Assembly (NCBI GenBank): GCA_965205335.1
Contig: OZ242164.1
Span: 1,024,001-1,088,000, forward strand
From: Candidatus Woesearchaeota archaeon
GTDB taxonomy: Archaea; Nanobdellota; Nanobdellia; Woesearchaeales; UBA583
Length of the DNA stretch: 64,000 nucleotides
Direction: 5' to 3'
Shown piece by piece: positions 2,921 through 49,577 of the stretch. Below the pieces are notes generated by a model. That model was not told where the DNA came from, did no database searches, and was given only the letters and a program-made list of their open reading frames with translations. How positions within the stretch are numbered: the first letter of the stretch is position 1; the number at the start of each line of letters is the position of its first letter. The position numbers were made by a program, and so were the translations under genes.

Positions 2921-3416
2921 TGTGTAAACGGGTGACATATGTCACCAGTCTAAAAATTAACAATTCTTATTAATTTTATGAAAAATACGAAATTAGGAAA
3001 GTTTTCATAAGACTAAGAGTTAAACAAAACTCTTATTCAAAATGCAAGAAAATACTGCTGAGAAGTGCAAATACTTTGTAAGTATTCGTACTTTAAAACT
3101 TTGGCAACACCGTTTTGATAAAGAAATATGGGATTATCAAGATAAGTCTACAAGACCAAACAAGATCTATTACAAAGTTACTTTAGAAGATGAGAAAGCA
3201 ATTTTAAATCTTCGATATAGAACTGGTGGGGGAAGCTAAAAAGCTTCATAAATTCCTACTAATCAGGATATTTCAGAGTAACCATTAATAGAGTTATTTA
3301 GGTATAGATACAATGTTTTTAGACCTCATGAGAGCTTATTTGGTCAAACTCCTTCTTATGAGTTTGACAACTTTCAGAGAAAGTTGAGGTGGTGACATAT
3401 GTCATTGCACTACACA
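2921..3416 (+). mobile_element. Internally deleted IS481-family element
   Basis: TGT...ACA ends; imperfect 26-bp TIRs TGTGTAnnnnnnTGACATATGTCACC; transposase remnants (IRTLKLWQHRF..DKSTRP and YNVFRPHESLFGQTP) similar to the element at 33171. Confidence 0.85.
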
Positions 3417-3547
3417 CCATATGCTTAAAAGTAATTCTTATAGAATAATTATTTAGTTACTTGATGTTTTCAGGTTAAAACTAAATTTATAATGTCTGTG
3501 TCTTTGGCAAAATATTTATAAGTAAACTCTATTTTCTTTATAGTGTA

Positions 3548-3715
3548 ATGGTTGAAGCAAAGTTTGATGAGTATGGAAATAAGATAATAAATGAAGCAGG
3601 TTCAGTTACGTTTAATTGTCCTAAATGCAATGATGTAGAGATTTCCAGATCAAGAAAAGCAAGAGAACTCTCAAAGGAGTATGTGTGTCCAAGGTGTGGA
3701 TTTGTAGGTCCTTAA
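3548..3715 (+). CDS. Small zinc-finger protein, DUF1610/HVO_2753 family (55 aa, missed by ORF track)
   Basis: MVEAKFDEYGNKIINEAGSVTFNCPKCNDVEISRSRKARELSKEYVCPRCGFVGP; FxCPxC and YxCPxCGFxGP signature. Confidence 0.88.
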   Translation: MVEAKFDEYGNKIINEAGSVTFNCPKCNDVEISRSRKARELSKEYVCPRCGFVGP

Positions 3716-3719
3716 AAAA

Positions 3720-4385
3720 ATGAAGAAAAAGTCAGAAGATTTTTACAAGAAGTATTCAATAGTTATGGGAATTGTTTTAGTTGTTCTTGTATTTGTTTTT
3801 CTTTATGTTAATAATACAAAGGATGGCAATACTTCTGAGGAAAAAACAGATGAATATGTTAATGATTCAAAAATGGATGAAGTAAAAAAGATTGCAGTTC
3901 TAAATACAAATCATGGAATTATAAAGATTAAGTTGTATTTAGAGGAAAGTCCGATAACAGCAGGAAATTTTAAAAAACTTGTTGAGGAAGGTTTTTATGA
4001 TGGAGTTAAGTTTCATAGGGTTATTCAAAATTTTATGATTCAAGGAGGAGATCCTCTTACGAAGGATGATTCTTCGCAGAATGGATGGGGGACAGGTAGT
4101 CCTGGGTATGCAATTGAGGATGAGTTTATTGAAGGACTGTCAAATGTTCGGGGGACAATTTCAATGGCAAATTCAGGTCCTAATTCAGGAGGTTCTCAGT
4201 TTTTCATTAATGTTGCTGATAATACAAGATTGGATTGGGACAAAGAACCTTCCCTGAGTAAACATCCTGTGTTTGGAATGGTTGTAGAAGGAATGGATGT
4301 AGTTGATGAGATTTCAAAAGTTCCAACAGTTTCTGGTGATAGGCCTTCTGAACATGTTGTAATTGAGAAGGCTTATATGGAATAA
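3720..4385 (+). CDS. Cyclophilin-type peptidyl-prolyl isomerase with N-terminal membrane anchor
   Basis: FYDGVKFHRVIQNFMIQGGDP, SMANSGPNSGGSQFFIN, HPVFG. Confidence 0.95.
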   Translation: MKKKSEDFYKKYSIVMGIVLVVLVFVFLYVNNTKDGNTSEEKTDEYVNDSKMDEVKKIAVLNTNHGIIKIKLYLEESPITAGNFKKLVEEGFYDGVKFHRVIQNFMIQGGDPLTKDDSSQNGWGTGSPGYAIEDEFIEGLSNVRGTISMANSGPNSGGSQFFINVADNTRLDWDKEPSLSKHPVFGMVVEGMDVVDEISKVPTVSGDRPSEHVVIEKAYME

Positions 4386-4482
4386 TTTTTGGATTTTTAT
4401 TTTTTTATTTTTTGCGGTTTTAATTTGAATTAGTTTAGAAGGAAACCTTAATCTTATAAAATAAGGTTAATTTTTAGATTGT

Positions 4483-5481
4483 ATGCAGTTAAGCAATCAG
4501 GCAAAGTCAGTTCTTGAAAATCAGGGGTATAGAATAGTTGGAACTCATAGTGCGGTTAAGACTTGTGGCTGGACTAAGAATACTTTAAGGGGGAAAGGTG
4601 GTTGTTATAAACTTAAATTCTATGGTATAAAGTCTCATAAGTGCATGCAGATGTCAACGTCTATTTCTTGTGCTAATAGATGTACTTTTTGTTGGAGAGA
4701 TTATAAGTCCCCAGTTTCAAAGACATGGGATTGGAATGTTGATGAGCCTGATATGATATTTGATAAGTCGCTTGAGGCTCATCATGATTTGCTTGTGGGG
4801 TTTAAGGGAAATCCAAATACTCCAAAGGTTTTGTATGAGCAATCAAATAAAGTTGAACATGTTGCATTATCACTAACAGGAGAACCTATTACATATCCCA
4901 GAATGAATGAGTTAGTTAGGAAGTTTCATAGTCAGAAGATTTCAACTTTTCTTGTGACAAATGCTCAATATCCAGATGCAATTAGGAATTTAATTCCAGT
5001 AACTCAATTGTATATTAGTTTGGATGCTCCAAAGAAGGAGTTGTTAAAGAAAGTAGATGTTCCATTGTTTAAGGATTATTGGGAGAGGTTAAATTTATCT
5101 CTTGAAATTATGGCGAAGAGACTGGATAGAACCTGCATCAGATTAACCTGCATTAAAGATTTGAATATGATTGAACCAGAGAATTATGCTAAGTTGATTA
5201 AGAAGGCGTCACCTGATTTTATTGAGGTTAAGGGTTATATGTGGGTTGGAGCATCTCAGGAGAGGTTAAAGTTTGAAAATATGCCAAAGTCATATGAGAT
5301 AGAGGAATTTGCAATGAAGGTTTTAGAGCATCTTGATGATTATGAATATGTAACAGAGCATAGTCCATCAAGAGTAATTCTTCTTGCAAAAAAAAAGTTC
5401 AATAAACAGACATGGATTGATTATCCTAAATTCTTTGAAGAGTATCCAAGTCTTCTAAGAGAATGGAAGAGAGTGAAGTAA
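4483..5481 (+). CDS. taw1: 4-demethylwyosine synthase (radical SAM, Taw1/TYW1)
   Basis: HSAVKTCGW, CYKLKFYGI, CANRCTFCWR, HVALSLTGEP. Confidence 0.95.
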   Translation: MQLSNQAKSVLENQGYRIVGTHSAVKTCGWTKNTLRGKGGCYKLKFYGIKSHKCMQMSTSISCANRCTFCWRDYKSPVSKTWDWNVDEPDMIFDKSLEAHHDLLVGFKGNPNTPKVLYEQSNKVEHVALSLTGEPITYPRMNELVRKFHSQKISTFLVTNAQYPDAIRNLIPVTQLYISLDAPKKELLKKVDVPLFKDYWERLNLSLEIMAKRLDRTCIRLTCIKDLNMIEPENYAKLIKKASPDFIEVKGYMWVGASQERLKFENMPKSYEIEEFAMKVLEHLDDYEYVTEHSPSRVILLAKKKFNKQTWIDYPKFFEEYPSLLREWKRVK

Positions 5482-5565
5482 TATTGAGAATTAGGTTTAG
5501 ACTTTAGGGAATTTTTTAATTTTAGAATAAAAGTCTTTATAAAGGCTCTTTTCTTTTTTTTAAGT

Positions 5566-6663
5566 ATGAGTTTAGCAGAGAAATTAAAATTTAGAAAGTT
5601 TATTAAACAATTGAAAAGATATAAAGGCAGGCATACGGAACTTATTAGTGTTTATCTGCCGCCTAAAACTGAGATTTCCAAAACAATTCAGACACTTTCT
5701 GATGAACAGGGCACTGCAACAAATATAAAGGATAAAAATACAGGTAAATCAGTTATTACTTCGCTTGAACGTATGATTAGAACACTTAAAACTTTTGACA
5801 GAGTGCCTGATAATGGAATCGCTATTTTTTCAGGAAATGTTTCAGACAGGGATAATATTTCAGATTTTAAAGTATTTTGGGTTGAACCTCCCAAACCAGT
5901 TTCAACAAAATTATATAGATGCGAACAGAGATTTATTACAAAGCATCTTGAAGAGATGGATGCAAATGAAACTACTTACGGACTTATTGTTATAGATAAA
6001 GGTGAAGCAACAGTTGGAGTTTTGTGTGGTTCATCAATTAGAACAATTAAGACAATGGTTTCAAATGTTCCAGGGAAACATAAAACTGGCGGGCAATCAG
6101 CTCAGAGATTTGAGAGAATTCGCGAAGGTGCAACAATTGAGTTTTTTAAGAGGGTTTCTGATGTTGTAACAAAGGAATTTACATATATGAATGAGTTAAA
6201 GGGAATTTTAATTGGAGGTCCTGGTACTACAAAGAATAATTTTGTTGATGGAAATTATATGAATGAACAGATTAAGGGAAAAATTATTGCAGTAAAAGAT
6301 ATTACATACACTAATGCTTTTGGGTTAAAGGAGTTATTTGATGCATCAGAAAATGATTTGGCAGATACGGAAGTTGTTGAGGAGAGAAAAACTATTGAGA
6401 AATTTTTTGATACATTAGGCAAGAATGTAGATATGGTAGTCTACGGACTTGAAAATACGAAAGCCGCTCTAAAAATGGGGGCAGTTGATTCTCTGATTAT
6501 TATTGATGATATTGTTTCCGATGAGGATTTAGAGGAACTAACAAAGATTGCCCAGATATCAAAAACTAATGTTAGTTTAGTGACAGATAAGACTCCTGAA
6601 GGTGTTCAGTATAAGGGTTTAACGGGGATTGGTGGCATTTTAAGATATCCTATCTCAAACTAA
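5566..6663 (+). CDS. prf1: Peptide chain release factor aRF1
   Basis: GRHTELISVY, NIKD (NIKS-like), YRCEQRF, GGQSAQRF, GIGGILRY. Confidence 0.97.
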   Translation: MSLAEKLKFRKFIKQLKRYKGRHTELISVYLPPKTEISKTIQTLSDEQGTATNIKDKNTGKSVITSLERMIRTLKTFDRVPDNGIAIFSGNVSDRDNISDFKVFWVEPPKPVSTKLYRCEQRFITKHLEEMDANETTYGLIVIDKGEATVGVLCGSSIRTIKTMVSNVPGKHKTGGQSAQRFERIREGATIEFFKRVSDVVTKEFTYMNELKGILIGGPGTTKNNFVDGNYMNEQIKGKIIAVKDITYTNAFGLKELFDASENDLADTEVVEERKTIEKFFDTLGKNVDMVVYGLENTKAALKMGAVDSLIIIDDIVSDEDLEELTKIAQISKTNVSLVTDKTPEGVQYKGLTGIGGILRYPISN

Positions 6664-6718
6664 ATCTCTTGTAAATAACAACTAAACTTTATATACTTTA
6701 TTCTTAGTTTTATAGTAT

Positions 6719-7921
6719 ATGACTTCTTTTAGTGATATTTTCAAATTTGTGCTAAAGAACATGTTTGAAAAGAAAGGAAGAGTTTTGTTAACAGTTTCAG
6801 GAATTGTTATAGGAATTTTTACGTTTATTTTTTTTGTGTTTGCATCACAGGGTTTGTCAAATGCAATTTCTGGGCAATTCACTGCGTTTGGCGTAAATGT
6901 TTTAATAGTTCGCTCAGCAGATTCTAGTAGTGGAGGTCCTCCTGGAGGAGGTGGATTAACAGATACGGATATTGAGAATATAAAAAAGGTTGCAAGAGGA
7001 TATAAGTATGTAGCACCTTTTATATTTCATACCGGGTTGTATGAGTATGGAAGAAGTAGGGAAGTAATTGTGTCGTTAGCGTATCCTGATAAGTATTGGG
7101 ATGATGTGGGATCAGATATTGGAATTGAGATGGAGAAAGGGAGGTTTTTACGGCAGGGAGATAGAGGAGTTGTAGTAGTTGGAGATAAGGTATCAAAAGA
7201 TGGATTTGGGGAAGGAAATGAAATTATAGTAGGTAGTTCTATTAAAGCTGAAAATAGAAGTTTTAGAGTAATTGGAATAATAAAGAACAGGGGGGATTTG
7301 TTTGTTGATAATTCAATTCTTTTAACTTTTGATGATATAAAGAAAGTGTCAGGTCAGGATACTTATGGGGGGATAAGAGTGAGTTTTCTTGAAGGGGTTG
7401 ATTTGGATGAACAAAGAAATGCTATTGAGAGGAAGCTTAATCCAAATAGTCGTGAGAAGAATATAGAGATAACATCTCCTAATCAGGCAATTGAACAGTT
7501 TAATTCAATATTAGGAGTTCTTAGAATGATAATTTTGTTTGTTTCATCAATTGCTTTAGTTGTGGGTGGAATTAATGTTATGAATACTATGTATTCTAAT
7601 ATTTTGGAGAGAATAAATGAAATTTCTGTAATGAAGGCTCTTGGAGGGACAAATTCAGATATTAGAAATATGTTTTTGATTGAGAGTTCTATTCTTGGGT
7701 TTATCGGGGCTTTTGTAGGGTTTATGTTAGCATACGGGTTAGCTGAACTTCTTTCGTATTTGATTACAAATTTTGGGGGTTATAATGTTCCAGTGAATTT
7801 TAGTTTTGAACTTTTTATTTACACAATGCTAATTACTACATTTTTTGCTATGCTTTTTGGAACTTATCCTGCAATAAGAGCTTCTTATGTTGATCCTGCT
7901 GATAATTTAAGAGATGAGTGA
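6719..7921 (+). CDS. ABC transporter permease, MacB/FtsX family
   Basis: LTVSGIVIGI, VGGINVMNTMY..ER..EI..MKALG, YPA.RAS..DP...LR.E. Confidence 0.92.
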   Translation: MTSFSDIFKFVLKNMFEKKGRVLLTVSGIVIGIFTFIFFVFASQGLSNAISGQFTAFGVNVLIVRSADSSSGGPPGGGGLTDTDIENIKKVARGYKYVAPFIFHTGLYEYGRSREVIVSLAYPDKYWDDVGSDIGIEMEKGRFLRQGDRGVVVVGDKVSKDGFGEGNEIIVGSSIKAENRSFRVIGIIKNRGDLFVDNSILLTFDDIKKVSGQDTYGGIRVSFLEGVDLDEQRNAIERKLNPNSREKNIEITSPNQAIEQFNSILGVLRMIILFVSSIALVVGGINVMNTMYSNILERINEISVMKALGGTNSDIRNMFLIESSILGFIGAFVGFMLAYGLAELLSYLITNFGGYNVPVNFSFELFIYTMLITTFFAMLFGTYPAIRASYVDPADNLRDE

Positions 7922-7999
7922 AGTTTTTTGGTTTGAAGTTTAATATGAGAATTTTAGTATTGAGAGAGAATAAGGATTTTGCATAAATATAATAATTTT

Positions 8000-9772
8000 T
8001 TAAATCTCTTCACTTGTTTTTTCTCTTCTTACTACTTTTCCGTCTCCTGTATAAAAGTTTAAGATTTGGGGGCGTCTATTTTTGGTGTTAACTAAAACGC
8101 ATTTTCCAATGTCTGGATACATTCCCATTTTTTCTTGGTAATCACTCATTTCAACCCAGCATCCGCACGAGATAATAGAACATCCTTTGTAGTTTTTAAT
8201 AGCTAATTTGTGAGTATGTCCCACTACAAAGAAGTCAGGCATTTTACGAATTACAAGGGGGTCTCTTTGGTTATCAGGAATGTATAGTGTTGAGCCGTGA
8301 GATGGGGCAAGATGTCTTTTTTCAAGTAAATAGGCAACAACCTCTTCTGGAACTTTCGCTCCGCCTTTTTCACGGAGTTCACGGATTTTGTCAGCATAAT
8401 AGAAGATAGAACCCCCATGATATAAGAAGAAGTCAAGTCCTCCACTTGGGTCATCTTGAAATAATTTAATTATTGCCGGGTTGCTTAGCATTAGAACATT
8501 TGGCATATTGTATAGAGCATATGCTTTTTCGTAAGCAATTTTTGGCTGAGGCTCTGATAGTCTGTCTGTATCATGGTTTCCCGGAATTATAATTAAGCAT
8601 TTGTCTTTGGGGATTTGTGAGAACCATCTTGCGGCTTCATGGTACTGTAATTCTGTTGAGAGAATTCTTGCATCCATTCCCTGATTTGGATATATTCCAA
8701 TGCCTTCAATTACATCGCCTGCAACTATTATGTATTTGACTTTTTTGGCTATTTCATTTAGTTTCTTGCTTTTTGTCTGGGAGTTTATAAAGTCAACAAA
8801 TCTTGAAAAGGCATCATCAACAAAGACTTTTGCTCCAAAATGTAAGTCTGAGATAAAGACAACATATTCTTCTTTTTCAGTTTTTTTTAATTCAACAGAG
8901 TTAGGCGGTGATGGGACTATGAATTCATCAACCCATATTATTTCATTTCCTACTTTTCCTTTAACCCCAATGCCTTCGTCAAGACAGAATCTTTGAATTT
9001 GTTTTATCATATCAGTTTTTTCTTTGTTTGTAAAGCATTTAATGGTTCCTGATTTGTCTTCAATTGAAATCATATAATGTCCGTTTTTTGTTTGGGATAT
9101 GTCTGAAATAAGCCCAATTACAGTAACCTGAGAATTTGATCCGTACAAGTCTTTTAGTTTGTCTATTCTAACAATGTTTTCGCTTTGAATTCTGTTTTTT
9201 AAAAGTTCCGTAAAGTACTGGAGTCTTCTGTTAAAGTATAGTGTGAAGTCTGAGACCGTTATTTTTTTTGAGGGTTCAACGTAATCAAACAGAATGTCAA
9301 TTTTAAATTTTTTTGCTTTCTCCAATTTGTCTAAATTGTAATTGAAATTCTCTTTTGGTTTGAATATGCTTAAATCAATAGGATATGATTCTTCTTTTCT
9401 TTCTTTTTGAGGTGTAAGGGAAGTGTCTGTTAATGGTTTTTCATCGTGTAAAACTCCTAATTCGGCTTTGAGAAATCTTATGAAGTTGAGATAGATTTTC
9501 AAAGCTCTTTTGTCTTTGTGATTTTTAAATACTATGTGAAAATCATCCCAGTTTGTTCTTTTTAGTTTTGATAAGTTTTCTTCGTTTAGTTCTATTTCTG
9601 AGAAGATGTTTATTAAGTCTTGATTTAGAAAATCAATGTTAAGTCCTTCTTTTTTTAGTGTGTCAAATTTATTTAGAAAGTCAATTTCTTCGTTTTGGGA
9701 TTTGAATTTGATGTTTCCTAATATCTGAATGTTTTTGGATTCAAATATGTCTAGGATGTTATTTTGTGACAT
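8000..9772 (-). CDS. DNA polymerase D small (exonuclease) subunit DP1
   Basis: OB-fold plus phosphoesterase motifs ISDLHFG, AGDVIEGIGIYPNQ, IPGNHD, YHG, HLAPSHG, GHTH. Confidence 0.95.
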   Translation of the reverse strand: MSQNNILDIFESKNIQILGNIKFKSQNEEIDFLNKFDTLKKEGLNIDFLNQDLINIFSEIELNEENLSKLKRTNWDDFHIVFKNHKDKRALKIYLNFIRFLKAELGVLHDEKPLTDTSLTPQKERKEESYPIDLSIFKPKENFNYNLDKLEKAKKFKIDILFDYVEPSKKITVSDFTLYFNRRLQYFTELLKNRIQSENIVRIDKLKDLYGSNSQVTVIGLISDISQTKNGHYMISIEDKSGTIKCFTNKEKTDMIKQIQRFCLDEGIGVKGKVGNEIIWVDEFIVPSPPNSVELKKTEKEEYVVFISDLHFGAKVFVDDAFSRFVDFINSQTKSKKLNEIAKKVKYIIVAGDVIEGIGIYPNQGMDARILSTELQYHEAARWFSQIPKDKCLIIIPGNHDTDRLSEPQPKIAYEKAYALYNMPNVLMLSNPAIIKLFQDDPSGGLDFFLYHGGSIFYYADKIRELREKGGAKVPEEVVAYLLEKRHLAPSHGSTLYIPDNQRDPLVIRKMPDFFVVGHTHKLAIKNYKGCSIISCGCWVEMSDYQEKMGMYPDIGKCVLVNTKNRRPQILNFYTGDGKVVRREKTSEEI

Positions 9773-15919: not shown

Positions 15920-18900
15920 ATGAAAAAAATACTTATTATTACTTTATTTGTTATGATGTTGTGCTTTGGAGTTTAGTTTTTGCTCCAGAGGAGATTAAAA
16001 TTCCAGCTGAACTAAGTACTAAAATTATGGGATTTATGAAAATATCCTGAATACCATCTAACACCGTAATGGTGATAGTTATACATTTAAAGTTACAATT
16101 CAGGAATGATATGTATGGATAAAGAAAAGTAATTAGAGCAGGTAGTTTTTCAGATGCACTTAATCTTTACATGGAAATAGAATTTCTAGATGAAAACATC
16201 GTTATTATAAGCAAAATGAAAGATTTGCGTATTTTGGTGATCGGGGAGAAGAATTTACTATTTAATGCTGAATTCTATGAGAAATAATTAGCGTGAGGCT
16301 ATTCCTCCCATTAAGAACAGCGCAACAGGTAACTGAAACATTATTTTGGTAGTCCTGAGGGATCATTACCAGAAGGGTAACAAATTACTAATAAAGATGG
16401 AAGAAAGTCATGCATTACAGTATAATAGGAAATTTTCTTGTGATGTGAAGGATGGAGATATAAAGAAATATTATTAAGGTACAAGATGGAGAAGAAAGAC
16501 TTAGTACAAACCTATTCCAGTCTGGGTCTGCTGATGGTGCTTCTGATCTTCTGATCTTCTGATCTTCTGATCCTGCTGCTACTGATCAAAATGCTCCTAA
16601 ACCTGCTCCAAAATGGTGTTCCTTCTCAAAATGGTGTTCCTTCTCAAAATGGTGTTCCTTCTCAAAATGGTGTTCCTGATCCTGCTGCTTCTTCCTGCTT
16701 CTTCTGCTCCTAAACCTGCTTCTTCTAGTCTTGATTTTACTATTACTCTACAGTTCAATTAGTAGAAGAGTAGCTAGTTCTGGACCTCTACAGATAGTTT
16801 GTGAACCCAAAAGTCTATGTCAAAGTTGCTAAAAGATTAGAATGCAGGGATCCCAGTGGTTGTGGAGATATTGAATATAGTTTAGAAGATGTAAATGATG
16901 AAGACCTTAAAACCGTTTTTGAAAGAAGAAGCTCTCTTAATACAATTAAAGAAAAAGAAGATTTTTTGAGAGTTTTGAATGAAAATGGAGATTATTTAAG
17001 TGAAAATATTGATGGTGTTTTGGCGGAATTTTATAGTAAGTGTAGAATCTGAAGGGTAAGAAAAGGATTGTTAATTTGAATGGATTATGCTCCAAATTTA
17101 GGGGAGGTAAAATGGATTGTCTGAAAATTTTTATTGAAAAAAACTCAGAACATTTAATATCCAGAATTGGAGATAGAAGTTTTGTTATTGGGCCAGAAAC
17201 TATAGTGAAAATGTTTGAAGAACGAGATTCTAAAAGTTTAAAATTATATGGACATATAGCAAAAGCAGTTTTGGAAAAATACTAATTTTGATAATTTTGA
17301 TGGAGAAGAACTTGAAGCGGTTTATTATAACAGAGAGAAATTATTTCCTGAAGGTGATGAAAGTAATGATATAAAACTTGTGAAAGCTTTGAGTGAAAAT
17401 GGTGTTATTGGAAAGAATCCTGAAATGGTAGGATATGCAATGGATGTAGATGAAAAAGCAGAATCAAATATTATTGATTGGGAGAAAGCATGCCCTAAAG
17501 GGACTAAAGCGAATTGTCTGATTAAAATGGTAGAAAAAAATTCTGATTATGCAGTATCTGTAGTTGAGAATGGAAGATTTAAACCTGATAGAGAAGCTTT
17601 GGCAAAATTAGTTGCATACTCAGGATTTGATCATGAAACAAAACAACTAATCTTCGACGGTATTAATGGGAAACGTTGTAAGGGAATCTGGGGAAAAATT
17701 ACCTGTCTTTTTAAGGATAAATTAATACAACAAGAATTACATAATGAAAATTTTGATGCAGAAATATACAATGTTATAGATAGAAATTCGAAAGTTTCAA
17801 AAAAAATTGATACTTGTTTGGAAGGTGATAAATGTGTGAAAGAAGAAGTGATATGTGAAGAAGGAATGAGTGCTAGTAATTGTCGGGAATCTATTGAAAT
17901 AAAATTATGTCCTCCTACAAAATCTAAAGATGTTTGTGATAAAGCAAATAGGATATTAGATGAAAATCGAAAATTAGATCCTACTAAATTAGTGCAGTAT
18001 AATAAAGATGTAATAAAAGCAAACATAAAGGCTGGAGGAGTTACATGTGAATATGAAGAGGATAAAGATTGTGAAAGGGTTGCTAAAGCGTGCAGTGGAG
18101 ATCCTATTTCATCGGGTTGTAGAGATGCTATGACTTCTTATTGTGAGGTTATGGCCAAGAAAAGAAAAGGGAAAATAGACTGTTCAAAAATAATAGGTGG
18201 ATTAGAAAAAGCTAAGAAAGACCAGTTTGTTGAAACTAATGTTGGTTTTACTATTCTTGATGCTATTCTAAATCCTGACCAAAGTGCTATGGATACAGTC
18301 AGACTCATAGGTGGAATCTTCGGATATGAAGCAGATTATACTTGGCTTCCGAATTGGCTTAAAGAGGATGTAAGTTCATCAATATGCCTCGCTAAAATTG
18401 ATGGATACCTTGATGAAGCAGTTTCTGATGGAAGAGGAGGTCTTACTCAATATGAACGTGAACTTGAAACAGAGCCAAGAACTGGACAACCATTTGATTC
18501 AAATGTGGTTGTAAGAGCAGATCTGAGAGGACAACGCTCACGAATTCTTCCAGATGATTCTGTAAATATCATGTATTCATATTACCTAAGAGCACCTGAC
18601 GATAAAGACTTATTATATAATTTAAGACTTGGTTATATTAAAGATGGAAATAAAGTAATAAAGGATTTATTTAGCGAACCAAGAATTAGAAATCTCTCAA
18701 AAGGCCAAACCGTTTCAGATTTCCAATCAATAAAATTACCACCAATTAATGATTCTGAAGATGTAGACCCAAACTCATTCTCACTTAATTTTAGAGCAAA
18801 ACATAATGATAATAAAATAGTTGATTTAATTGCCCCTATGGTCCTTATAGAAAGTGGAAATACAATCTCAGGCAGAGCTAGAATTTCATCAGGCGGTTCT

Positions 18901-18948
18901 GGTGTAAGTAATCAGGAAAACGCTTACAGTGATTTCTGGGATGATTAA
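15920..18948 (+). CDS. Very large secreted Cys-rich protein; 5' half fragmented by many indels, 3' half intact (17380-18948)
   Basis: Signal-peptide start MKKILIITLF at 15920; coding-like fragments 16801-17052 and 17076-17285 resemble the start of the 522-aa ORF; Pro/Ser linker repeats. Confidence 0.5.
16540..16677 (+). repeat. Tandem repeats: (CTTCTGAT)x4 and (CAAAATGGTGTTCCTTCT)x3.8, encoding a QNGVPS linker
   Basis: Read directly at 16540-16571 and 16609-16677. Confidence 0.9.
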
Positions 18949-19296: not shown

Positions 19297-20568
19297 ATGG
19301 ATAGAAATAAATTAAAATTAATCATGTTAGATCAAAGAAGTTCATTTCTATCAGAAAAAGAATTAATTGATAGAGAAATAGACATAGATAATTACATTAA
19401 ATCAAAACAAATAGTTCTAATTTCAGGCATAAGAAGAACAGGAAAATCATCTCTACTATATCTCATAAAAAATAAATTAGAAATAAATGATGAGAACATT
19501 CTATATTTCAATTTTGATGATGTGAGATTAAGTGATTTTCAAATTGATGATTTTAATTTAATATATGAACTTCATTTAGAATATTTCAACCCAGACTTAA
19601 ATAAACTAACCATCTTTTTTGATGAAATTCAAAATATGTCTAACTGGGAAAAATTCCTAAACAGAATGTATGAAAAAGGCATAAAGATATATGTCACAGG
19701 TTCAAATGCCAAACTATTAAGTTCAGAAATTGCAACATCTTTAACAGGAAGAAATCTTCAATTACAATTATATGTCTTCTCCTTTAAAGAATACCTTAAA
19801 TATCACAAATTTGATTTTGAATTAAGCACACTAACAACTGAAAAAAGGGTTAAACTATTATCCTATTTTAACAATTATCTAAAATTCGGAGGATTCCCCT
19901 TAGTAGTTATAGAAAAAAATTTAGAATTAGTTAAATCATATTATAACGATATATTATACAGAGATATAATCGCAAGATTCAATATATCCCAAGTTGAAGA
20001 AATAAAAATATTAGGAAGTTATCTGGCTTCAAATACTGGGAAATTAATTTCATACTCAACATTAAAAGAAATTAGCAAGTTAAAAAGTTTAAGCACACTA
20101 AAAAACTATATTGATTATTTTGAAAATTCATTTCTATTTTACTTTTTAAAAAAATATGATTATTCAGTAAAAAAGCAGATATTGAATCCAAGAAAAGTAT
20201 TTGTTTGCGATGTTGCATTTAGTTCCCAGATAGGATTTAAATTTTCAGAGGATACTGGAAGAGATTTAGAAAATTTGGTATTTGTGCATTTGAAACGATT
20301 AGGAAAGGAGACATATTACCATAAAGATAAATATGAATGTGATTTTGTAATTAATGATAAAAGCAAAATAATACAGGCACTTCAGGTCTGCAAGAATTTA
20401 GATAGTTCAGAAACAAAAAAAAGAGAAATAAGAGGACTACTTGATGCTATGGATAAATATGAATTAAAAGAAGGCTTAATTTTAACGGAAAATGATGAAG
20501 GAAAAGAGATTATTAATAGAAAGAAAATAATCATAAAACCTATATGGAAGTGGTTACTTGAATTTTAA
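19297..20568 (+). CDS. AAA+ ATPase with DUF4143 C-terminal domain
   Basis: Walker A GIRRTGKS, FFDEIQ, VTGSNA, LTGR, GGFP, LENLVF..L, ECDFV. Confidence 0.92.
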   Translation: MDRNKLKLIMLDQRSSFLSEKELIDREIDIDNYIKSKQIVLISGIRRTGKSSLLYLIKNKLEINDENILYFNFDDVRLSDFQIDDFNLIYELHLEYFNPDLNKLTIFFDEIQNMSNWEKFLNRMYEKGIKIYVTGSNAKLLSSEIATSLTGRNLQLQLYVFSFKEYLKYHKFDFELSTLTTEKRVKLLSYFNNYLKFGGFPLVVIEKNLELVKSYYNDILYRDIIARFNISQVEEIKILGSYLASNTGKLISYSTLKEISKLKSLSTLKNYIDYFENSFLFYFLKKYDYSVKKQILNPRKVFVCDVAFSSQIGFKFSEDTGRDLENLVFVHLKRLGKETYYHKDKYECDFVINDKSKIIQALQVCKNLDSSETKKREIRGLLDAMDKYELKEGLILTENDEGKEIINRKKIIIKPIWKWLLEF

Positions 20569-20832
20569 ACAAGGCGGGTTCTGTTCAAAATTTTTCGGTT
20601 TTTATTGCTTAAGCAAGAAAAGTTAGAGTTTGAAGATTTAAAAAAAGTGGATATGATAAATTACTACAATTTCAAACATTCCCCCGAATTTCAGAGGTAC
20701 TTTACCCCACCCAAACTAAAAGAGTCTCCTACAAATTGATTTGAGAAAGTGTTTTTTTGGGATTGGTGGGAAAATACACAATTTAGGGAATTTCAGTAAA
20801 TTTATAAATAAATAAATACATAAGTATTTATT

Positions 20833-21081
20833 ATGGCTTTATTAGATGAAGAAATTGAAACTTTTAAAAAGAATAAAGAGAATTTGTTACAAGATCATTT
20901 AGGTAAATATGTTTTAATAAAAAAAGATAAAATTATAGGAACATTTTTTGATAAAAGAGATGCAATAAATCAAGGATATAAAAGATTCCCAAATCAAGAG
21001 TTTTTAGTAAAAGAAATTCAGGAATGTGATGAAGAAATAAAATTAAGTAATTATGGTGTTAAAGTCTTATGCCCTTTGTGA
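20833..21081 (+). CDS. DUF5678-like small protein (cassette cargo)
   Basis: FKKNKENLLQDHLGKYVLIKKDKIIGTF...DAINQGY pattern; TTTATAAA at 20801. Confidence 0.75.
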   Translation: MALLDEEIETFKKNKENLLQDHLGKYVLIKKDKIIGTFFDKRDAINQGYKRFPNQEFLVKEIQECDEEIKLSNYGVKVLCPL

Positions 21082-21467
21082 ATAAAAAATTTCCTGATAA
21101 AATTACTCATCCAGTTTTGGAATGTAATTTTATAAATCCTAACGATAATAAAAAAATAGAAAAGAATTGTATTTCTTTAATTGACACAGGAGCAACACAT
21201 ACAGCGGTAGATTTATCTATCCCTAAAAAATTAGGATTAAAACCAATAAGTAAAACATCAGCAATTACAGCAGGTGGAAAAGTTGAAGATGTGTATATAT
21301 ATGAAATTAGTTTAACCATAAAACCATTTGAACCATTAATTTTACAATGTCTTGCAATGGATTTATATGATAAGCAAAGAATATATGCTTTAATTGGATG
21401 TGATTACTTATGTAATTTTTATTTTGTATTTGATGGACATTTGAATATGATAAAAATAGGAAAATAA
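21069..21467 (+). CDS. Retropepsin-like (clan AA) aspartic protease (cassette cargo)
   Basis: LIDTGAT catalytic motif, TAGG flap, LIGCDYL; overlaps upstream gene; stop lies inside the right TIR. Confidence 0.88.
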   Translation: MPFVNKKFPDKITHPVLECNFINPNDNKKIEKNCISLIDTGATHTAVDLSIPKKLGLKPISKTSAITAGGKVEDVYIYEISLTIKPFEPLILQCLAMDLYDKQRIYALIGCDYLCNFYFVFDGHLNMIKIGK

Positions 21468-21535
21468 AAACCGACAAATTTTGAACAGAACCAACAAGGT
21501 GATAAATTTATAAAAAATCACATTATAAGATTAAT

Positions 21536-21673
21536 ATGGAAACTAAAAAAGAGATGATAGAGAAATTCAAGAAGGGAGAATATGATAGAGGTAAAACAAT
21601 ATCATATACTAAACCAGATGGAAGTTTGCCAACTTTTAAAGAATTTAATGAAATGATAGAGAAATATAAATAA
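21536..21673 (+). CDS. Small hypothetical protein (45 aa)
   Basis: METKKEMIEKFKKGEYDRGKTISYTKPDGSLPTFKEFNEMIEKYK with TTTATAAA about 25 nt upstream. Confidence 0.5.
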   Translation: METKKEMIEKFKKGEYDRGKTISYTKPDGSLPTFKEFNEMIEKYK

Positions 21674-21732
21674 GAGATAGCATTAATGGAGTTTAAACCT
21701 CAGGTGATAAAATTATTTTACAGATTAAAAAC

Positions 21733-23049
21733 CTATTTAAATATCCTGATCTTTTTAACAAAACTTAAATCCCTATTTAAAATTTTTTCAAAATCCTTTA
21801 AATTAATCTGGGATATTTCTGATAAATCCATTACTCTTCTTTTTTCATAAGAACACACCCTGCCCTCTTTAACAAAATAAAAATCCCTGTTCTTTAAAAA
21901 CTTTTTAATAGAATCTCTCATTGTTACCTTAGGACCTTCTACTTCTTTTATATTTGGAAGATTTTGCTTTTCAAAAAGAAATACAAATAAACATTTCTGC
22001 TCATCTAAATTTATCTCAAATTCGCAATGGAAAATTTTAAAATCAAAAGATTCAAAGTATTTTTTGGTTTTATTAAAAGCTCTTTTAAGCTTTGAACCAA
22101 TAATATCACAACTCTCATTTTCCAAATTAAAATTAAACAAATACGCTATTCTTTTCAAATTATTCTCTTTTGCAAATTCTGATGAAGATTTTAATATCTC
22201 GTTTATATTAATTTTATTCTCTTCAAAATCGGAAACAGATAAAGTATTTATTCTATTGCATTCAAAAATAAATTTGGAATAATTATCATAAGAGAGTGCT
22301 CTTGCGCAATTTCTATTTTTTACTGTCGGGTCAATTACAACTAAATTTGAAAGTTTATCATGCTCAATGGAATTTTTTGCTAAATCAAATGATTTATAAT
22401 AAGAATTTATATCAATGAAAGTTTCATCTTCCCATTTCTGAGCATTTTTAATTAAATTAGAGAATGAACCATAATATATTATAAGAATTTCTATAACATG
22501 AGCTGAAAATCCATTAATATATCCTTCTGCCCCATATAATTTTTTTGATCTGAAAAACTGCTTTGCAATCCTTATCTCATTAGATAAATCTGGATTCTCC
22601 TCTATTTTCTTTTGAACAAATTGAACATGCATAGGAGATAAATCCGTTGAGTTCATATAATCAGAATATTTTCTAATCTTATAAACAGGAACTACTTCAA
22701 ATCTGATTTTATATTTTTTTGGAGAAAAAATCCCTGAGAAGTAATCTCTTGAACCTTTCTGTTTTTTGTGTTTGATTTTAGCCTCATTTAATATATTCTT
22801 AAGATATTGACTTAATCTCTCATCTTTATATTTCATATCAAACCGTACAAAATAATCAATATCACAACCCCTAAGATAAGTTCCCTTTCCAAAACTGCCT
22901 CCCACAAAGACATCACATTTCAATCCAAGTCTGTTTGCGGCTCTTTTTAATTTCCTTTTCAGTTTATTTGCTCCCTCTGTTAGGAAATCATGTTCCTTGT
23001 TAGTTGGTTTTATATTTTTTAAAACCTTTGATTTAGTTAGATTATCCAT
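21733..23049 (-). CDS. cca: Archaeal CCA-adding tRNA nucleotidyltransferase
   Basis: GSFGKGTYL..CDIDYF, EVVP, D.SP.H, LYGAE..INGFS, VIDP....RN. Confidence 0.93.
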   Translation of the reverse strand: MDNLTKSKVLKNIKPTNKEHDFLTEGANKLKRKLKRAANRLGLKCDVFVGGSFGKGTYLRGCDIDYFVRFDMKYKDERLSQYLKNILNEAKIKHKKQKGSRDYFSGIFSPKKYKIRFEVVPVYKIRKYSDYMNSTDLSPMHVQFVQKKIEENPDLSNEIRIAKQFFRSKKLYGAEGYINGFSAHVIEILIIYYGSFSNLIKNAQKWEDETFIDINSYYKSFDLAKNSIEHDKLSNLVVIDPTVKNRNCARALSYDNYSKFIFECNRINTLSVSDFEENKININEILKSSSEFAKENNLKRIAYLFNFNLENESCDIIGSKLKRAFNKTKKYFESFDFKIFHCEFEINLDEQKCLFVFLFEKQNLPNIKEVEGPKVTMRDSIKKFLKNRDFYFVKEGRVCSYEKRRVMDLSEISQINLKDFEKILNRDLSFVKKIRIFK

Positions 23050-23794: not shown

Positions 23795-26700
23795 TTATTT
23801 CTTTTTATTCTTATCTGATGGGCTATTGGATTTCTTGGTATCTATACTGGATTTTTTGTCCTTATAGAATTTCTCAAAGTCCTGAGCTTCATCTTCTAAA
23901 CTCTTTTTCGGACTACTTTTCCCAGATGCTTTTGATTTGGAGTAAAAATCATCAAAATCATCTTGTGAGTATTTTGCATCTTTTCTTCTCTTAAGCAATG
24001 TATCCTCATATTTGTCGACTTTTCCTTTATCCACTTTATCAAATTTATCAAATACACCCTGCCCAGATTTTAAAGTGTCATCAATGAATTTGTTTAATTT
24101 ACTTAGGTGGGAATCATATTTAGTCTTTGGCTTTACACTCTGCTTGTTATCCTGACTAACATTACTACTTCCTGTTGTAGTAAATCTAACTGGTGATTTT
24201 CCTAATGGTTTTAATACCTTATTACTTCTTTTAATTCCAAATTTCTCTAATTGAGTGTCTAAATATCCCTTTCTGTATGCATAATATGCTCCTCCACCTG
24301 AAATAGATAATACTACAAGTACTATTGCTGCAATTATTAAACCTCCACCACCACCTGAATCTTCCGGATCATCAATACCTTCGAAGTCGAATATACCGCA
24401 TTCATCTTCACTTGGCTCTGCTGGGGCAGTTGCATCACAAATACCATCAACTATCTTCCCCGGATTACAGTCTTCACATGAATTACATTCTTGGCATGAA
24501 TCATCGTCTCCACCGCCACCACCTCCAGAAGGACCAGGTTCAGGGGGTAGAGGTGGTGATGGACTAACTTTCTCTTTAGCTCTAACTTCATTGCCTGCTC
24601 CATCTTTTGCCCACACGCAAATCCATCTGTTATTCCCCACTTCAATAGAACCACTTATGTAATCTATACTTTCAGTACAACTCTCTTTGGAATTTGATAA
24701 GGAATATTTTATCTGCAAGCACTCTCCAGAATCATCAGTGCAGGTTATAGATACTTCATATGGATTCTGGGGATCTCTGTTAATTTTAAGAGTTGGGCTT
24801 ATAAAATCACACAAATTTCCCTCACAATCAGAAGAGACTTCAAGCATTTCTTCAATATAAACATCATTGCCTGCTCCATCTTTTGCCCACACGCAAATCC
24901 ATTTGTTATCTCCTACCTCAATAGAAGAACCACTTATGTAATCTATACTTGGAGTACAGTTATCCTTAGAGTCTGATAAAGAGTATCTTATCTTCTCACA
25001 CCCACTTAAATCATCAGTGCAAACTATGGTTATTAGGGATGAATTCTGGGAATCAGTATTAACTACAAGAGTTGGATGAGTAAAGTCACATTCAGAATCT
25101 GTAGAATCTTCTTCTATACATTCTGAATGAAGTTCAGTGCATTCAGGACTTTCAGAATCCTCTGTGCAGGGGGGTTCTTCATTAGGTGGTGGAGGTGGTT
25201 GTGGAGGAGGAGATGCTCCAAGAGAATAATTATTACTAGGAGCCTCATTGCCCACTTTATCCTCTGCTAAATAGCAAATCCATAAATAATCCCCTGCCTG
25301 AATTGAATCGCCTGTATAAATAGTAGATGGGTTGCAATCAAGTGAACCTGATAAAGAATACTTTATTTGTGCACACCCACTTAAATCATCAACACAGGTT
25401 ATGGACACATTACCCAATGACTTATCAATCTCTAAATTTGGAGGAGTAGAATCAACTAATATATCTTTTCTTAATTCTGAGCTATTAACTCCAATTTCAT
25501 TTTGACCAATAATAATTATCTCTTGGGCATTGTCAAGATCATGAGTGATTTTTCTTGGTTTTGAAGTACTATCATCAAGTTTCTCAGAAGAATTTTCACT
25601 TTTTATCTCTACGTAATATTTATCTATTTCAATTAAAGATTTAACTTCAAAATCAATTTCAAAGTTACTTGAATTCTTCACATAATCACTTTTTATCTTA
25701 TTGTTCACGAATGTCAGATTAGATAGCACAAGACCTTCTGAATCATATGTTATTGTAATTCTATTTGGGGATGATACTTCCCTTTCAACATTACAGTATA
25801 TGTAATATATATTTTCTCCTGATACTAAATCGGATGTAGTAAATGTCTTGATATATCCATCTCCAACCAGAGCAGGTTTGTTATTGTATTCTCCTGCATC
25901 AAATTGTGTTTTTGAATATTTACACTCATGATTTGCAGATAGGGTAACTGATACATCTGTTGAGGGCAGTGAAGCATATTTAGGAGTCCAATCAAGAACA
26001 TTTGAATTTCCAGTTGAGTTTACAATTAAATTATGAATTTTACTATCTGTATTGTATACTTTATCATAACATGTAAAATTTAATGCATGAGTTCCATCAT
26101 TTAAATCTAAACCTAATTTGTTGTGGTTTTTATTATTTGTTGTGTTTAATTTGATTTTATCTTGCGTACCTGTTTTTAAGAAACAAATTCCCTGCTCTGT
26201 AGTTCCAAGGGCTATATCAAATGGATTAAGAGATACTTTGTCCTTTGGAAGAATTTCATATATTTCAATTCCTTCAGTATATTTAGATGTATTTATAAGT
26301 TCTTGTTTTCCATATAAACTCTCACTTAGATAAGCTATATCAATGCTATGAGCTTGATTCTGACATGCTATCCAGAACCTGCTTGATGAAGAGAATTCCA
26401 CATTAATAGAATGGTCTAACATATTTAGAGAACTGTCCATAGAATGTTCTTCTAAATTTCTAAATTTGTGAATAGGTTTGAATCCAAGTAAATTGTCTGT
26501 AAAGTAACAAAGTGCACGAACATTTGTTTTAACTTTTATTGCAAAGTTATCCTGAGTATAATAAAGTTTATTTAAGAATAAATCACTGTTTTCAGTTTCA
26601 AAGTAATATTTTAGACTGTTATCATCTTTTCTTGTTAAAAGAGTTATGTTAATGTCTAAAGTTCTATACACTGCTTTAAAAGTAGCACTTGAACTTACCC

Positions 26701-27349
26701 CATAAATGTCAGTAAAATCAACTTTTACAATATTCACTCCATCAGATAAAGCGTCAAGTGGAAATCCAAATTCATTCTCTAATTTGTAATCTGTTTTATA
26801 TAAACTTTTCTGAGACATTTTATATGCAAGTTTTTCCTCTATGTAAACTTCATATTTTTGAATATGTTTTGAAAATTCTAAATTAACTGTTCCATCAGTT
26901 GGGGTTAATTGTACTACTTCATCTTCACTTGGAGAGTTTAATACAGGAGTAGAATTATCAAAATTAACAAAGAATTCACTTGGAGTTGAACGTTCTTCTG
27001 TGTCTAATTCATTTCCATAACTGTCAAGAATATTTAATTTGAAAGGACCTAATGATCCTAATGACAAAGGAATTATGCTTGAATTCACAGAACTAATAAG
27101 TTTGCTAAAAGATCTTCTTGGGCCACTTGGAACTTTTTTATTAATAACCAGGACATTCCCTCTCCCATATGTTATATTTTTCACAAAAACAGGTTCAGTA
27201 GGATTTGTTACAGTGAAATTTATATAAGGGTCTCCCTTTGACACATAGAAAACAAACTCTCTACTTTCATCAAATAAACCTATGGAATAAACTGTCTGTA
27301 AAAACAAAAACAAACACAGAAAACCAAATATAATTTTTATAATTTTCAT
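23795..27349 (-). CDS. Large membrane-anchored surface protein with three Cys-containing Ig-like repeats and Pro/Gly linkers
   Basis: Signal peptide; repeat ITCxDD.SGC..I.YSLS.S...C......WIC..A.D.AGN x3; TM helix then charged cytoplasmic tail. Confidence 0.85.
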   Translation of the reverse strand: MKIIKIIFGFLCLFLFLQTVYSIGLFDESREFVFYVSKGDPYINFTVTNPTEPVFVKNITYGRGNVLVINKKVPSGPRRSFSKLISSVNSSIIPLSLGSLGPFKLNILDSYGNELDTEERSTPSEFFVNFDNSTPVLNSPSEDEVVQLTPTDGTVNLEFSKHIQKYEVYIEEKLAYKMSQKSLYKTDYKLENEFGFPLDALSDGVNIVKVDFTDIYGVSSSATFKAVYRTLDINITLLTRKDDNSLKYYFETENSDLFLNKLYYTQDNFAIKVKTNVRALCYFTDNLLGFKPIHKFRNLEEHSMDSSLNMLDHSINVEFSSSSRFWIACQNQAHSIDIAYLSESLYGKQELINTSKYTEGIEIYEILPKDKVSLNPFDIALGTTEQGICFLKTGTQDKIKLNTTNNKNHNKLGLDLNDGTHALNFTCYDKVYNTDSKIHNLIVNSTGNSNVLDWTPKYASLPSTDVSVTLSANHECKYSKTQFDAGEYNNKPALVGDGYIKTFTTSDLVSGENIYYIYCNVEREVSSPNRITITYDSEGLVLSNLTFVNNKIKSDYVKNSSNFEIDFEVKSLIEIDKYYVEIKSENSSEKLDDSTSKPRKITHDLDNAQEIIIIGQNEIGVNSSELRKDILVDSTPPNLEIDKSLGNVSITCVDDLSGCAQIKYSLSGSLDCNPSTIYTGDSIQAGDYLWICYLAEDKVGNEAPSNNYSLGASPPPQPPPPPNEEPPCTEDSESPECTELHSECIEEDSTDSECDFTHPTLVVNTDSQNSSLITIVCTDDLSGCEKIRYSLSDSKDNCTPSIDYISGSSIEVGDNKWICVWAKDGAGNDVYIEEMLEVSSDCEGNLCDFISPTLKINRDPQNPYEVSITCTDDSGECLQIKYSLSNSKESCTESIDYISGSIEVGNNRWICVWAKDGAGNEVRAKEKVSPSPPLPPEPGPSGGGGGGDDDSCQECNSCEDCNPGKIVDGICDATAPAEPSEDECGIFDFEGIDDPEDSGGGGGLIIAAIVLVVLSISGGGAYYAYRKGYLDTQLEKFGIKRSNKVLKPLGKSPVRFTTTGSSNVSQDNKQSVKPKTKYDSHLSKLNKFIDDTLKSGQGVFDKFDKVDKGKVDKYEDTLLKRRKDAKYSQDDFDDFYSKSKASGKSSPKKSLEDEAQDFEKFYKDKKSSIDTKKSNSPSDKNKKK

Positions 27350-32912: not shown

Positions 32913-33170
32913 ACGATTTAACTTTGCTCCCCAAAGTTGCCTATCCTTAAAGACCATGTTATGTCCTCCTGTACTTAGAATTATTCCTAATCCACCAGTA
33001 TCACATGCTCTAACGTATTTCAGATCTCCCGTAATCATAGCGTATGAAGCAGTTGCAACACCTACTACCGCTTCATTTTCATGAGAAAAATAACTTTTCA
33101 AATCATCTGGGTTTTCCTTGTAGTTCTTTACTATTATTTTCGTTATATCTCTTACTCTATTTGAATTTAT

Positions 33171-34091
33171 TGTGCAGTAAAGTAGCATATGCTACCAATC
33201 AATTTTATTGAAGACTTCAGCAGGAGTTTTCTGATGAAGGCTTAAATGAGGTCTAAATTGATTGTAATTAAAACGAAATAACTCTAAATCATTATTATAA
33301 AAAGAACATTCACTTTTAATAGTACCAAAAAGTCTTTCGACTTTTCCATTCGTTTGAGGTCTTTTGACCTTTGTACGAATGTGTTTAAGATTTCTTCTTC
33401 TACACCAAACATCAAATTTTGAATACTTTGATTTCCCGCCATAGGGACTTCCATTATCACTAATTATCTGTTTGGGAGTTCCAAACTGGGAAATTAAAGT
33501 ATCTAAGAACTGCGTAACTACAAATGTGGTGACTGTTGGAACATATAAAATACCTAAGCAGTAACGTGAACAGTCATCAATTACTGCAATTACTTTACCT
33601 GATTCACCAAACTCACTATCATCAATATGCCATAGAGAGTTTGGATTTTTACGTTCGAAACGAACGTATTTAGCTCTTTGCCCACGATTATGTTCTTTAC
33701 GAGTTAAACCATTACATTTTAGAACTTTATTGATTGTAGTATGAGATAATTGAACAGATTTAATCTTTTGCTTTAGCTTTAGTGCTCCAACCAGTTTTAT
33801 TACGTAACTCAATTATCTCTTTTTCAGCTTCTTGAGTTACTTTGTAATAAACTTTATTAGGGATTTTAGATTTGTCTTGAAAATTCCAAATTAATCATTA
33901 AATCGTTTATACCTACGCTTTAATGTTGAAATATGAAAAGTTCTACTGAACTTTTTCTCTAAAAGTATTTGACATTTAGAGTACGAATACTTACATTTTA
34001 ACTTTATGAATTCACGGCGTAAATGTTCTTTTTTCATAAAAATTAGAAAAATTCTAATTTTATATGGTAGCATATGCTACTTTACTGCACA
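33171..34091 (-). mobile_element. IS481-family element, 921 bp, frameshifted transposase (34037 to 33192)
   Basis: Perfect 27-bp TIRs TGTGCAGTAAAGTAGCATATGCTACCA; 16-bp TSD CTCTATTTGAATTTAT (33155-33170, 34092-34107); WHID, DDCSR, SDNG, PQTNGKVER. Confidence 0.95.
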
Positions 34092-34304
34092 CTCTATTTG
34101 AATTTATCCTGAATGCATTAAAGTTTACAACTTTATCCAATATTCTCTCAAGTTTTGGATTAGTTTTTTCATTCATAATGTTGGCAGCACCTATTCACTT
34201 ATAAACTTATTCACTATAACATAGTTATAAATTAAAGTTTAATTAATACAATAATATGATAATTTAATGATTAATTTTTTACAAATTTTAAGTAGTTTAG
34301 ATAG

Positions 34305-49509: not shown

Positions 49510-49577
49510 AGAGGGTGACATCTCCGAAAGAGTTATAAATTAAAAAATCCATAAAATTGTAAGAGGTGAGTTTGCGA

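Follow-up and report, generated by a model that had tools for sequence, protein, structure and literature searches.

Insertion sequences of the IS6 family are described, in the part of the family review drawn on here (PMC7986276), as generating 8-bp target duplications and as measuring 700-890 bp, and the same part lists two miniature inverted-repeat transposable elements (MITEs) and a single element that carries a passenger gene. The 17-bp inverted repeat of IS257 is given, in an excerpt of its source, as GGTTCTGTTGCAAAGTT (PMC4856351). Mobile insertion cassettes (MICs), as far as the partial descriptions available to us go, have inverted repeats, a flush target duplication and one or two cargo genes, and are devoid of a transposase. 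These features of MICs are all shared by the locus reported here, a 916-bp cassette (20577-21492) in a 64,000-nt stretch of DNA from a Candidatus Woesearchaeota archaeon (contig OZ242164.1, positions 1,024,001 to 1,088,000; hereafter "the window", in whose numbering all positions are given unless a related locus is named). Between the terminal inverted repeats (TIRs) of this cassette lie two overlapping genes, coding for a small protein related to the DUF5678 family and for a retropepsin-type aspartic protease. We suggest, with a probability of about 0.55, that the cassette is a transposase-less insertion carrying one copy of a widespread toxin-antitoxin (TA)-like protease module, whose function we infer.

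The structural description given in the original prediction, of 30-bp TIRs with one mismatch, flanking 9-bp direct repeats, a TATA box and two overlapping genes of 82 and 132 amino acids placed at the stop of an ATPase gene, holds in all of these parts. A repeat search of the window places the left arm at 20577-20606 (+ strand) and the right arm at 21463-21492 (- strand), each 30 nt long, 97% complementary to one another (29/30, the sole mismatch being T versus G) and 856 nt apart. When up to three mismatches are allowed, the 30-mer is found at two sites only in the window, and these are the two cassette arms; two matches were obtained in 0/100 dinucleotide-preserving shuffles. The left direct repeat, AACAAGGCG (20568-20576), abuts the left arm and is read as a target-site duplication, and its counterpart AACAAGGTG (21493-21501) abuts the right arm. 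The two are identical at 8/9 positions and are flush with both arms solely when taken as 9 nt. Given the local base composition, a single fixed pair of 9-mers reaches at least 8/9 identity with a probability of 5.8e-4, and the consensus AACAAGGYG occurs three times in the window versus 0.47 expected, a count that 1/100 shuffles reached.

Starting from the left arm, the cassette has a non-coding leader of 226 nt (20607-20832, + strand), the gene of the DUF5678-related small protein (20833-21081, + strand; 82 amino acids), which we propose to regulate the protease or to be its antitoxin-like partner, and the gene of the clan AA protease itself (21069-21467, + strand; 132 amino acids, with D39-T40-G41). 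The two open reading frames (ORFs) overlap by 13 nt. The protease stop codon (21465-21467) falls in the right arm, as had been noted originally. A TATA-like A/T-rich stretch, TTTATAAATA, is located at about 20802-20811; because it precedes the first ATG, that of the small protein, by only about 25-30 nt, it is likely to be the archaeal promoter of a leaderless transcript. Family matches inside the cassette are limited to these two ORFs (DUF5678-like and Asp_protease_2), and a Pfam scan detected no transposase domain in either of them. An Rfam scan of 20300-21800 gave no match, no second copy of the leader was seen in the window, and a 44-amino-acid ORF with a TTG start in the leader (20605-20739) had no family match.

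The two genes form a linked and widespread module, in which they are coupled and kept together. A search with 12 aligned sequences of the small protein, made against one genome per species (185,579 species), returned 30 loci, which are biased toward proteins with the motif GK[YF]VLIK on account of the 12-sequence subset that served as the query. Together with one plasmid they make up 31 related loci, all of them distant from the window copy (<=51% identity). The next ORF on the same strand has a retropepsin match in Pfam (E <= 0.01) in 26/30 genome loci, and a 27th locus (L017) is paired with a protease gene that runs off the contig end; among the downstream ORFs submitted, that of the plasmid included, 27/29 gave such a match. 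The plasmid, from Methylobacterium radiotolerans, has the same arrangement of the pair, and its downstream gene carries the annotation "aspartyl protease family protein". Co-occurrence at 27/30 genome loci and on one plasmid, with one natural fusion besides, supports the earlier claim of a two-gene module.

Measured between the first gene's stop and the start of the longest ORF of the second, the spacing lies between -53 and +8 nt in 24/26 pairs, and the 13-nt overlap of the window copy is seen again in three archaeal loci. Pairwise identities of the two proteins across the 26 pairs are correlated at r = 0.825, a value reached in 0/2000 permutations and one that may partly reflect shared host ancestry. 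With hidden Markov models (HMMs) of the two families, each locus yields exactly one pair, and the window yields this pair only. A second DTG-containing ORF in one locus (L003, 4632-5066) was considered as a second pair and rejected, as it has no match to the protease profile at E <= 1e-3.

The fused form, P0128 (385 amino acids), joins two DUF5678-like domains to a retropepsin domain. Its C-terminal end has a Pro/Ala-rich stretch, then a hydrophobic and probably membrane-spanning segment, then basic residues; the hydrophobic end and the basic residues suggest that P0128 may be a membrane-anchored variant of the module. A profile search for longer fused forms produced three proteins, which had no Pfam domains. 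Beside an intact small gene, the protease is degraded in four loci: L004 and L006 retain protease remnants only, and the copies in L016 and L027 are truncated or frame-shifted; a fifth, L025, has no protease.

The label of a DTGA aspartic protease stands for the 132-amino-acid protein, which scores 35.3 bits against PF13650 (Asp_protease_2; cut-off 24.3) and has the DTGA motif. The score with PF13975 is slightly under the cut-off, and those with the NCBIfam clan AA subfamilies TIGR03698 and TIGR02281 are far below theirs. The D-T-G triad is invariant in 26/26 aligned proteases of the family, and the G-x-D motif is nearly so. Assignment to the retropepsin-type aspartic proteases of clan AA is solid. 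The nearest solved structures found with the protease-family profile are those of HTLV protease (E = 1.3e-3), the RVP domain of Ddi1 (1.9e-3) and ApRick (3e-3), with FIV protease also among them, all within E values of 1e-3 to 1e-2.

The label given to the small protein stood in part. The window protein itself scores 14.6 bits (E = 0.031) against DUF5678 (PF18929), below the gathering cut-off of 23.2, whereas 19/60 of its aligned relatives match PF18929 at E <= 0.01 (best 4.5e-8), and in the ESM Atlas it falls among DUF5678 clusters (score 0.93). We therefore treat it as a probable peripheral relative of DUF5678 within a coherent family. An exhaustive HMMER scan returned 773 representative relatives at E <= 1e-3, 20 of them at E <= 1e-10; the closest relatives are P0005 (65% identity) and P0004. 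The AlphaFold2 model (mean predicted local distance difference test score, pLDDT, 80.7) starts with a long helix, continues with a β-hairpin, a second helix and a third strand, and ends in a C-terminal tail that is disordered. With this model, Foldseek found 0 matches in the PDB at E <= 0.001, and the sequence profile found no solved relative there. Among 19 of the longer relatives, scanned with Pfam, the two-domain forms have, except for P0128, no added catalytic domain, and this hints that the working unit of the small protein may be a dimer. Near-identity searches with each of the two window proteins returned that protein itself and one distant match. In tblastn searches, the small protein had one match in plasmids and 0 in phages, the query P0018 had 0 in plasmids, and the protease had 0 in plasmids.

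Hosts of the pair are found in both domains and include Poribacteria, Chloroflexota, Acidobacteriota, Gammaproteobacteria, Parcubacteria, Ignavibacteria, Desulfobacterales and Phycisphaerae among the bacteria, and Woese-, Pace-, Nano- and Iainarchaeota and Thermoplasmata among the archaea. The neighbours of the pair vary from locus to locus, with no context common to all. Housekeeping neighbours include a ribosomal protein operon (L002), ArgRS (L014), leuCD and leuB (L020), rho (L010) and rpoB (L008). In four Poribacteria (L004, L005, L007 and L019) the pair lies immediately 3' of the specificity gene (Methylase_S) of a type I restriction-modification system, at about 3400-9300 of these loci, and in L004 and L005, where the ORF of ~986 amino acids 3' of the pair was scanned, it resembles an R subunit. 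MNT/HEPN genes are found near the pair in L008 and L018, and RelE in L026; the pair of L021 has an EcoRI-type methylase nearby, and that of L030 a partial integrase. A transposase of the IS1595 type adjoins the pair in L004.

The anatomy of the locus says that a transposition event placed the cassette DNA here, and the cassette is probably one old insertion event of a known kind. It would have landed in intergenic DNA just after the ATPase gene, whose stop codon (20566-20568) shares its last base with the start of the left direct repeat, with duplication of 9 bp of the target and with a later mutation in one of the two copies. On this account the uninterrupted site would have consisted of the ATPase stop, a single AACAAGGYG and then ATAAATTTAT. 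The A/T-rich region 5' of a 45-amino-acid ORF found directly 3' of the cassette (21536-21673, + strand) would have directly adjoined the ATPase stop codon at such a presumed pre-insertion site; this ORF matches no family and contains a 19-nt sequence in direct repeat (21548-21566 and 21647-21665). The first 17 nt of the left arm, which form the cassette tip GGTTCTGTT...AAA.TT, are identical to the excerpted IS257 repeat at 14/17 positions in an ungapped comparison. It is the anatomy of the insertion that points to movement in trans, for which a putative transposase of the IS6 type would have been responsible.

As for the cargo, we propose that it is a self-contained operon, probably leaderless, in which two genes are translationally coupled; the pair would be inherited as a whole and pass horizontally among bacteria and archaea. 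The protease would be cytoplasmic, and a homodimer is expected by analogy with other retropepsins. The small protein would bind it, perhaps by way of the disordered C-terminal tail, with this putative binding, for which the natural fusion P0128 is indirect evidence, holding the protease inactive or directing it; a protease set free would then cleave cellular or viral proteins. The TA reading is ranked first because of the patchy spread, the unrelated insertion sites, the carriage on a plasmid, the TA and restriction neighbours and the decay of the larger gene, and TA-like working is, in our assessment, the best-supported hypothesis.

A number of observations weigh against this proposal, in its account both of the mobility and of the function of the cassette. 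With respect to mobility, the window has neither a further copy of the repeat nor one of any cassette segment, and an exact search for the 21-nt repeat tip in the 185,579 species genomes, in which the source genome is apparently not included, gave 0 matches; other copies of the TIR, as the original prediction would have them, were thus not found. Nor does the pair travel with such repeats in its relatives. Flanking inverted repeats of at least 14 nt are present in 0/31 related loci (the longest are of 13 nt, in L014 and L018), and the window repeat itself is found at none of them, whether as a 20-mer (<=4 mismatches) or as a 30-mer (<=7 mismatches), three 14-mer matches with two mismatches being all located away from the pairs. 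The repeats are therefore best seen as an accident of the window copy and not as a property of the module. The guanine plus cytosine (GC) content of the cassette (0.23-0.29) is that of its flanks (0.25-0.26), so composition gives no hint of recent arrival. Of the proposed movement in trans, the insertion anatomy without a transposase stood, and neither a second repeat copy nor a matching transposase nor an empty site was found to complete it: no cognate transposase for the cassette ends is encoded in the window, where only a pair of IS481-like elements with different ends is present. The IS6-like (IS257-like) nature of the ends is likewise borne out only at the tip. Measured against the excerpted accounts of the IS6/IS26 family, the cassette resembles its members in this tip, in its short near-perfect repeats and in its length, 916 bp being close to the family range, and departs from them in having no DDE transposase and a 9-bp instead of an 8-bp duplication; the cointegrate mechanism of the family is, as far as the same accounts go, not known to move such cassettes. 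One could propose instead that the inverted repeats are not transposon ends at all, being recombination sites of an invertible segment, a chance or a structural feature, and that the pair is not on a mobile cassette. Their single occurrence, the missing cognate transposase and the lack of repeats in relatives are in line with this. We nevertheless regard it as very improbable, since an invertible segment would leave unexplained the 9-nt direct repeat that lies flush outside the arms (P ~6e-4), the 30-mer pair was found in 0 shuffles, the tip resembles a known insertion-sequence end and no recombinase gene adjoins the cassette.

On the side of function, the same direction is taken by the small protein, in which no helix-turn-helix, ribbon-helix-helix, AbrB or known antitoxin domain was found and for which Pfam yields DUF5678 alone, and by PHROGs (0/10 matches). 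Shared host ancestry may lessen what the correlation between the two proteins can say about their coupling, and the asymmetry in protease decay is biased, since the loci were found by way of the small protein. A small protein without such domains would fit an ordinary processing or regulatory unit, in which it serves as substrate, precursor or adaptor of a dedicated protease and the pair has spread by a modest accessory benefit. The prokaryotic retropepsin-like proteases characterised in the excerpted literature, namely RimB, the osmotic-stress enzymes of P. aeruginosa and APRc, have cellular roles such as ribosome modification and stress tolerance; one fused form of the pair has a C-terminal hydrophobic anchor, and many loci lie among housekeeping genes. 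We consider this explanation possible but doubtful: the pair is patchy across distant phyla and both domains, stands between unrelated genes and has a plasmid copy, it adjoins known TA and restriction-modification genes, and its protease alone has decayed repeatedly. The patchy spread, the neighbours and the decay of the protease therefore speak for selfish or defence behaviour and not for a conserved pathway. That this behaviour is anti-virus defence, the second option of the original prediction, with the protease as effector and the small protein as a sensor or as an inhibitor released on infection, seems to us rather improbable. Hints of it come from PADLOC, where the window protease matches PDC-M08B weakly (17.8 bits, E = 6.3e-4) and 8/26 of its relatives do so too (best 8.2e-6), from the candidate defence gene PDC-S01 adjoining the window copy, and from the four Poribacteria pairs 3' of Methylase_S, with the R-subunit-like gene downstream in the two scanned, and the one pair by an EcoRI-type methylase. 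The weak PDC-M08B matches, however, count against TA-like working as well, and so does the partner family, in which 0/60 small proteins match any PADLOC model; many loci are without defence neighbours, and the PDC systems are guilt-by-embedding candidates, most of them unvalidated, according to the section of their description used here (PMC12988326).

The window in which this TA-like module is found has archaeal gene content, including class I CCA-adding enzyme domains, eRF1, eIF-1A, Nre and the small subunit of the archaeal D-family polymerase, at a GC content of 31%, and is part of a contig of 1,199,749 bases. Together with the nearest relatives of the pair, these properties suggest a DPANN-type archaeon as host. 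The gene immediately 5' of the cassette, which is outside of it and is given here as context only, codes for an AAA_14 and DUF4143 ATPase (19297-20568, + strand). This ATPase matches the single-gene PADLOC candidate PDC-S01 at E = 4.7e-114 and has a weak match to Mrr_cat (PD-(D/E)XK) in its C-terminal part. A similar AAA_14 and DUF4143 ATPase (3363-4526 of the locus, - strand) adjoins the pair in L015, as in the window.

Two IS481-like elements are present in the window. One of them (33159-34103) shows inverted repeats of 39 nt (87%), and its transposase ORF of 206 amino acids (33192-33812) spans positions 81-284 only of the family model; the other (48526-49509) has 29-nt repeats beginning TGTGTTGTCC and a transposase of 328 amino acids (48535-49521). 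The possibility that the cassette is a decayed IS481-like element was considered and rejected, as the ends of both elements are unrelated to those of the cassette. Elsewhere in the window, the 1-kb bin 45001-46000 has 44% GC versus ~31% for the window as a whole; it coincides with a glutamine-synthetase-like gene (44989-46128), which may be horizontally acquired or strongly constrained. Two large ORFs, 23795-27349 (- strand, 1184 amino acids) and 17380-18948 (+ strand, 522 amino acids), have no Pfam match at E <= 1e-5. In the 1184-amino-acid protein, which is surface-protein-like, hydrophobic segments stand at both termini, with repeated Cys-containing blocks and a Pro-rich linker between them.

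The pairing described here gives a testable hypothesis for both families, DUF5678 being without an assigned function. If true, it would bring a class of proteases to the effectors known from selfish or defence modules, and the window copy, a single instance, would illustrate the enclosure of a module of this kind by insertion-sequence ends. In the comparison with MICs, the end repeats, the target duplication and the passenger genes without a transposase are all present in the window cassette, whereas neither ends shared with an insertion sequence nor other copies were found in the window or by the exact 21-mer search, so that, set beside the partial descriptions of MICs, it is a single copy without an identified cognate insertion sequence or sign of movement. 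We have met no MIC described from DPANN-type archaea, and made no search aimed at one.

The literature searched contained no aspartic protease toxin linked to an antitoxin, no TA or defence system with a retropepsin-type aspartic protease at its core, nothing related on DUF5678 and no mention of PDC-M08; a small retropepsin-domain protein has been mentioned near type III CRISPR loci of Sulfolobales. In PDC-M08, the B component belongs to a distantly related protease family with the weak matches given above, and the failure of the small proteins to match any PADLOC model means that none of them matches a PDC-M08 A model and that the pair is therefore not PDC-M08. With the proteases of HTLV and FIV, the RVP domain of Ddi1 and the Rickettsia enzyme APRc/ApRick, the window protease has in common a single-lobe clan AA domain, the DTG triad and the G-x-D motif, in which, in the window protein, C replaces the usual R of G-R-D. 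The similarity is very distant, and none of these enzymes is described with a partner of the DUF5678 type.

As a tentative extension of this comparison, possible rather than probable, the pair could represent a new TA or abortive-infection class, with a dimeric aspartic protease as toxin and a small protein of new fold as inhibitor, found in the window between IS6-like ends in an archaeon with a small genome. Neither of its proteins belongs to a known toxin or antitoxin family, and the small protein differs from what is familiar in type II TA modules in that no DNA-binding domain is seen in it. Yet the pair is organised just as type II TA modules are, as two small, overlapping and co-oriented genes with the smaller one first, patchily distributed across domains, and it shares with them the plasmid copy, the TA and restriction-modification neighbours and the decay of the larger gene.

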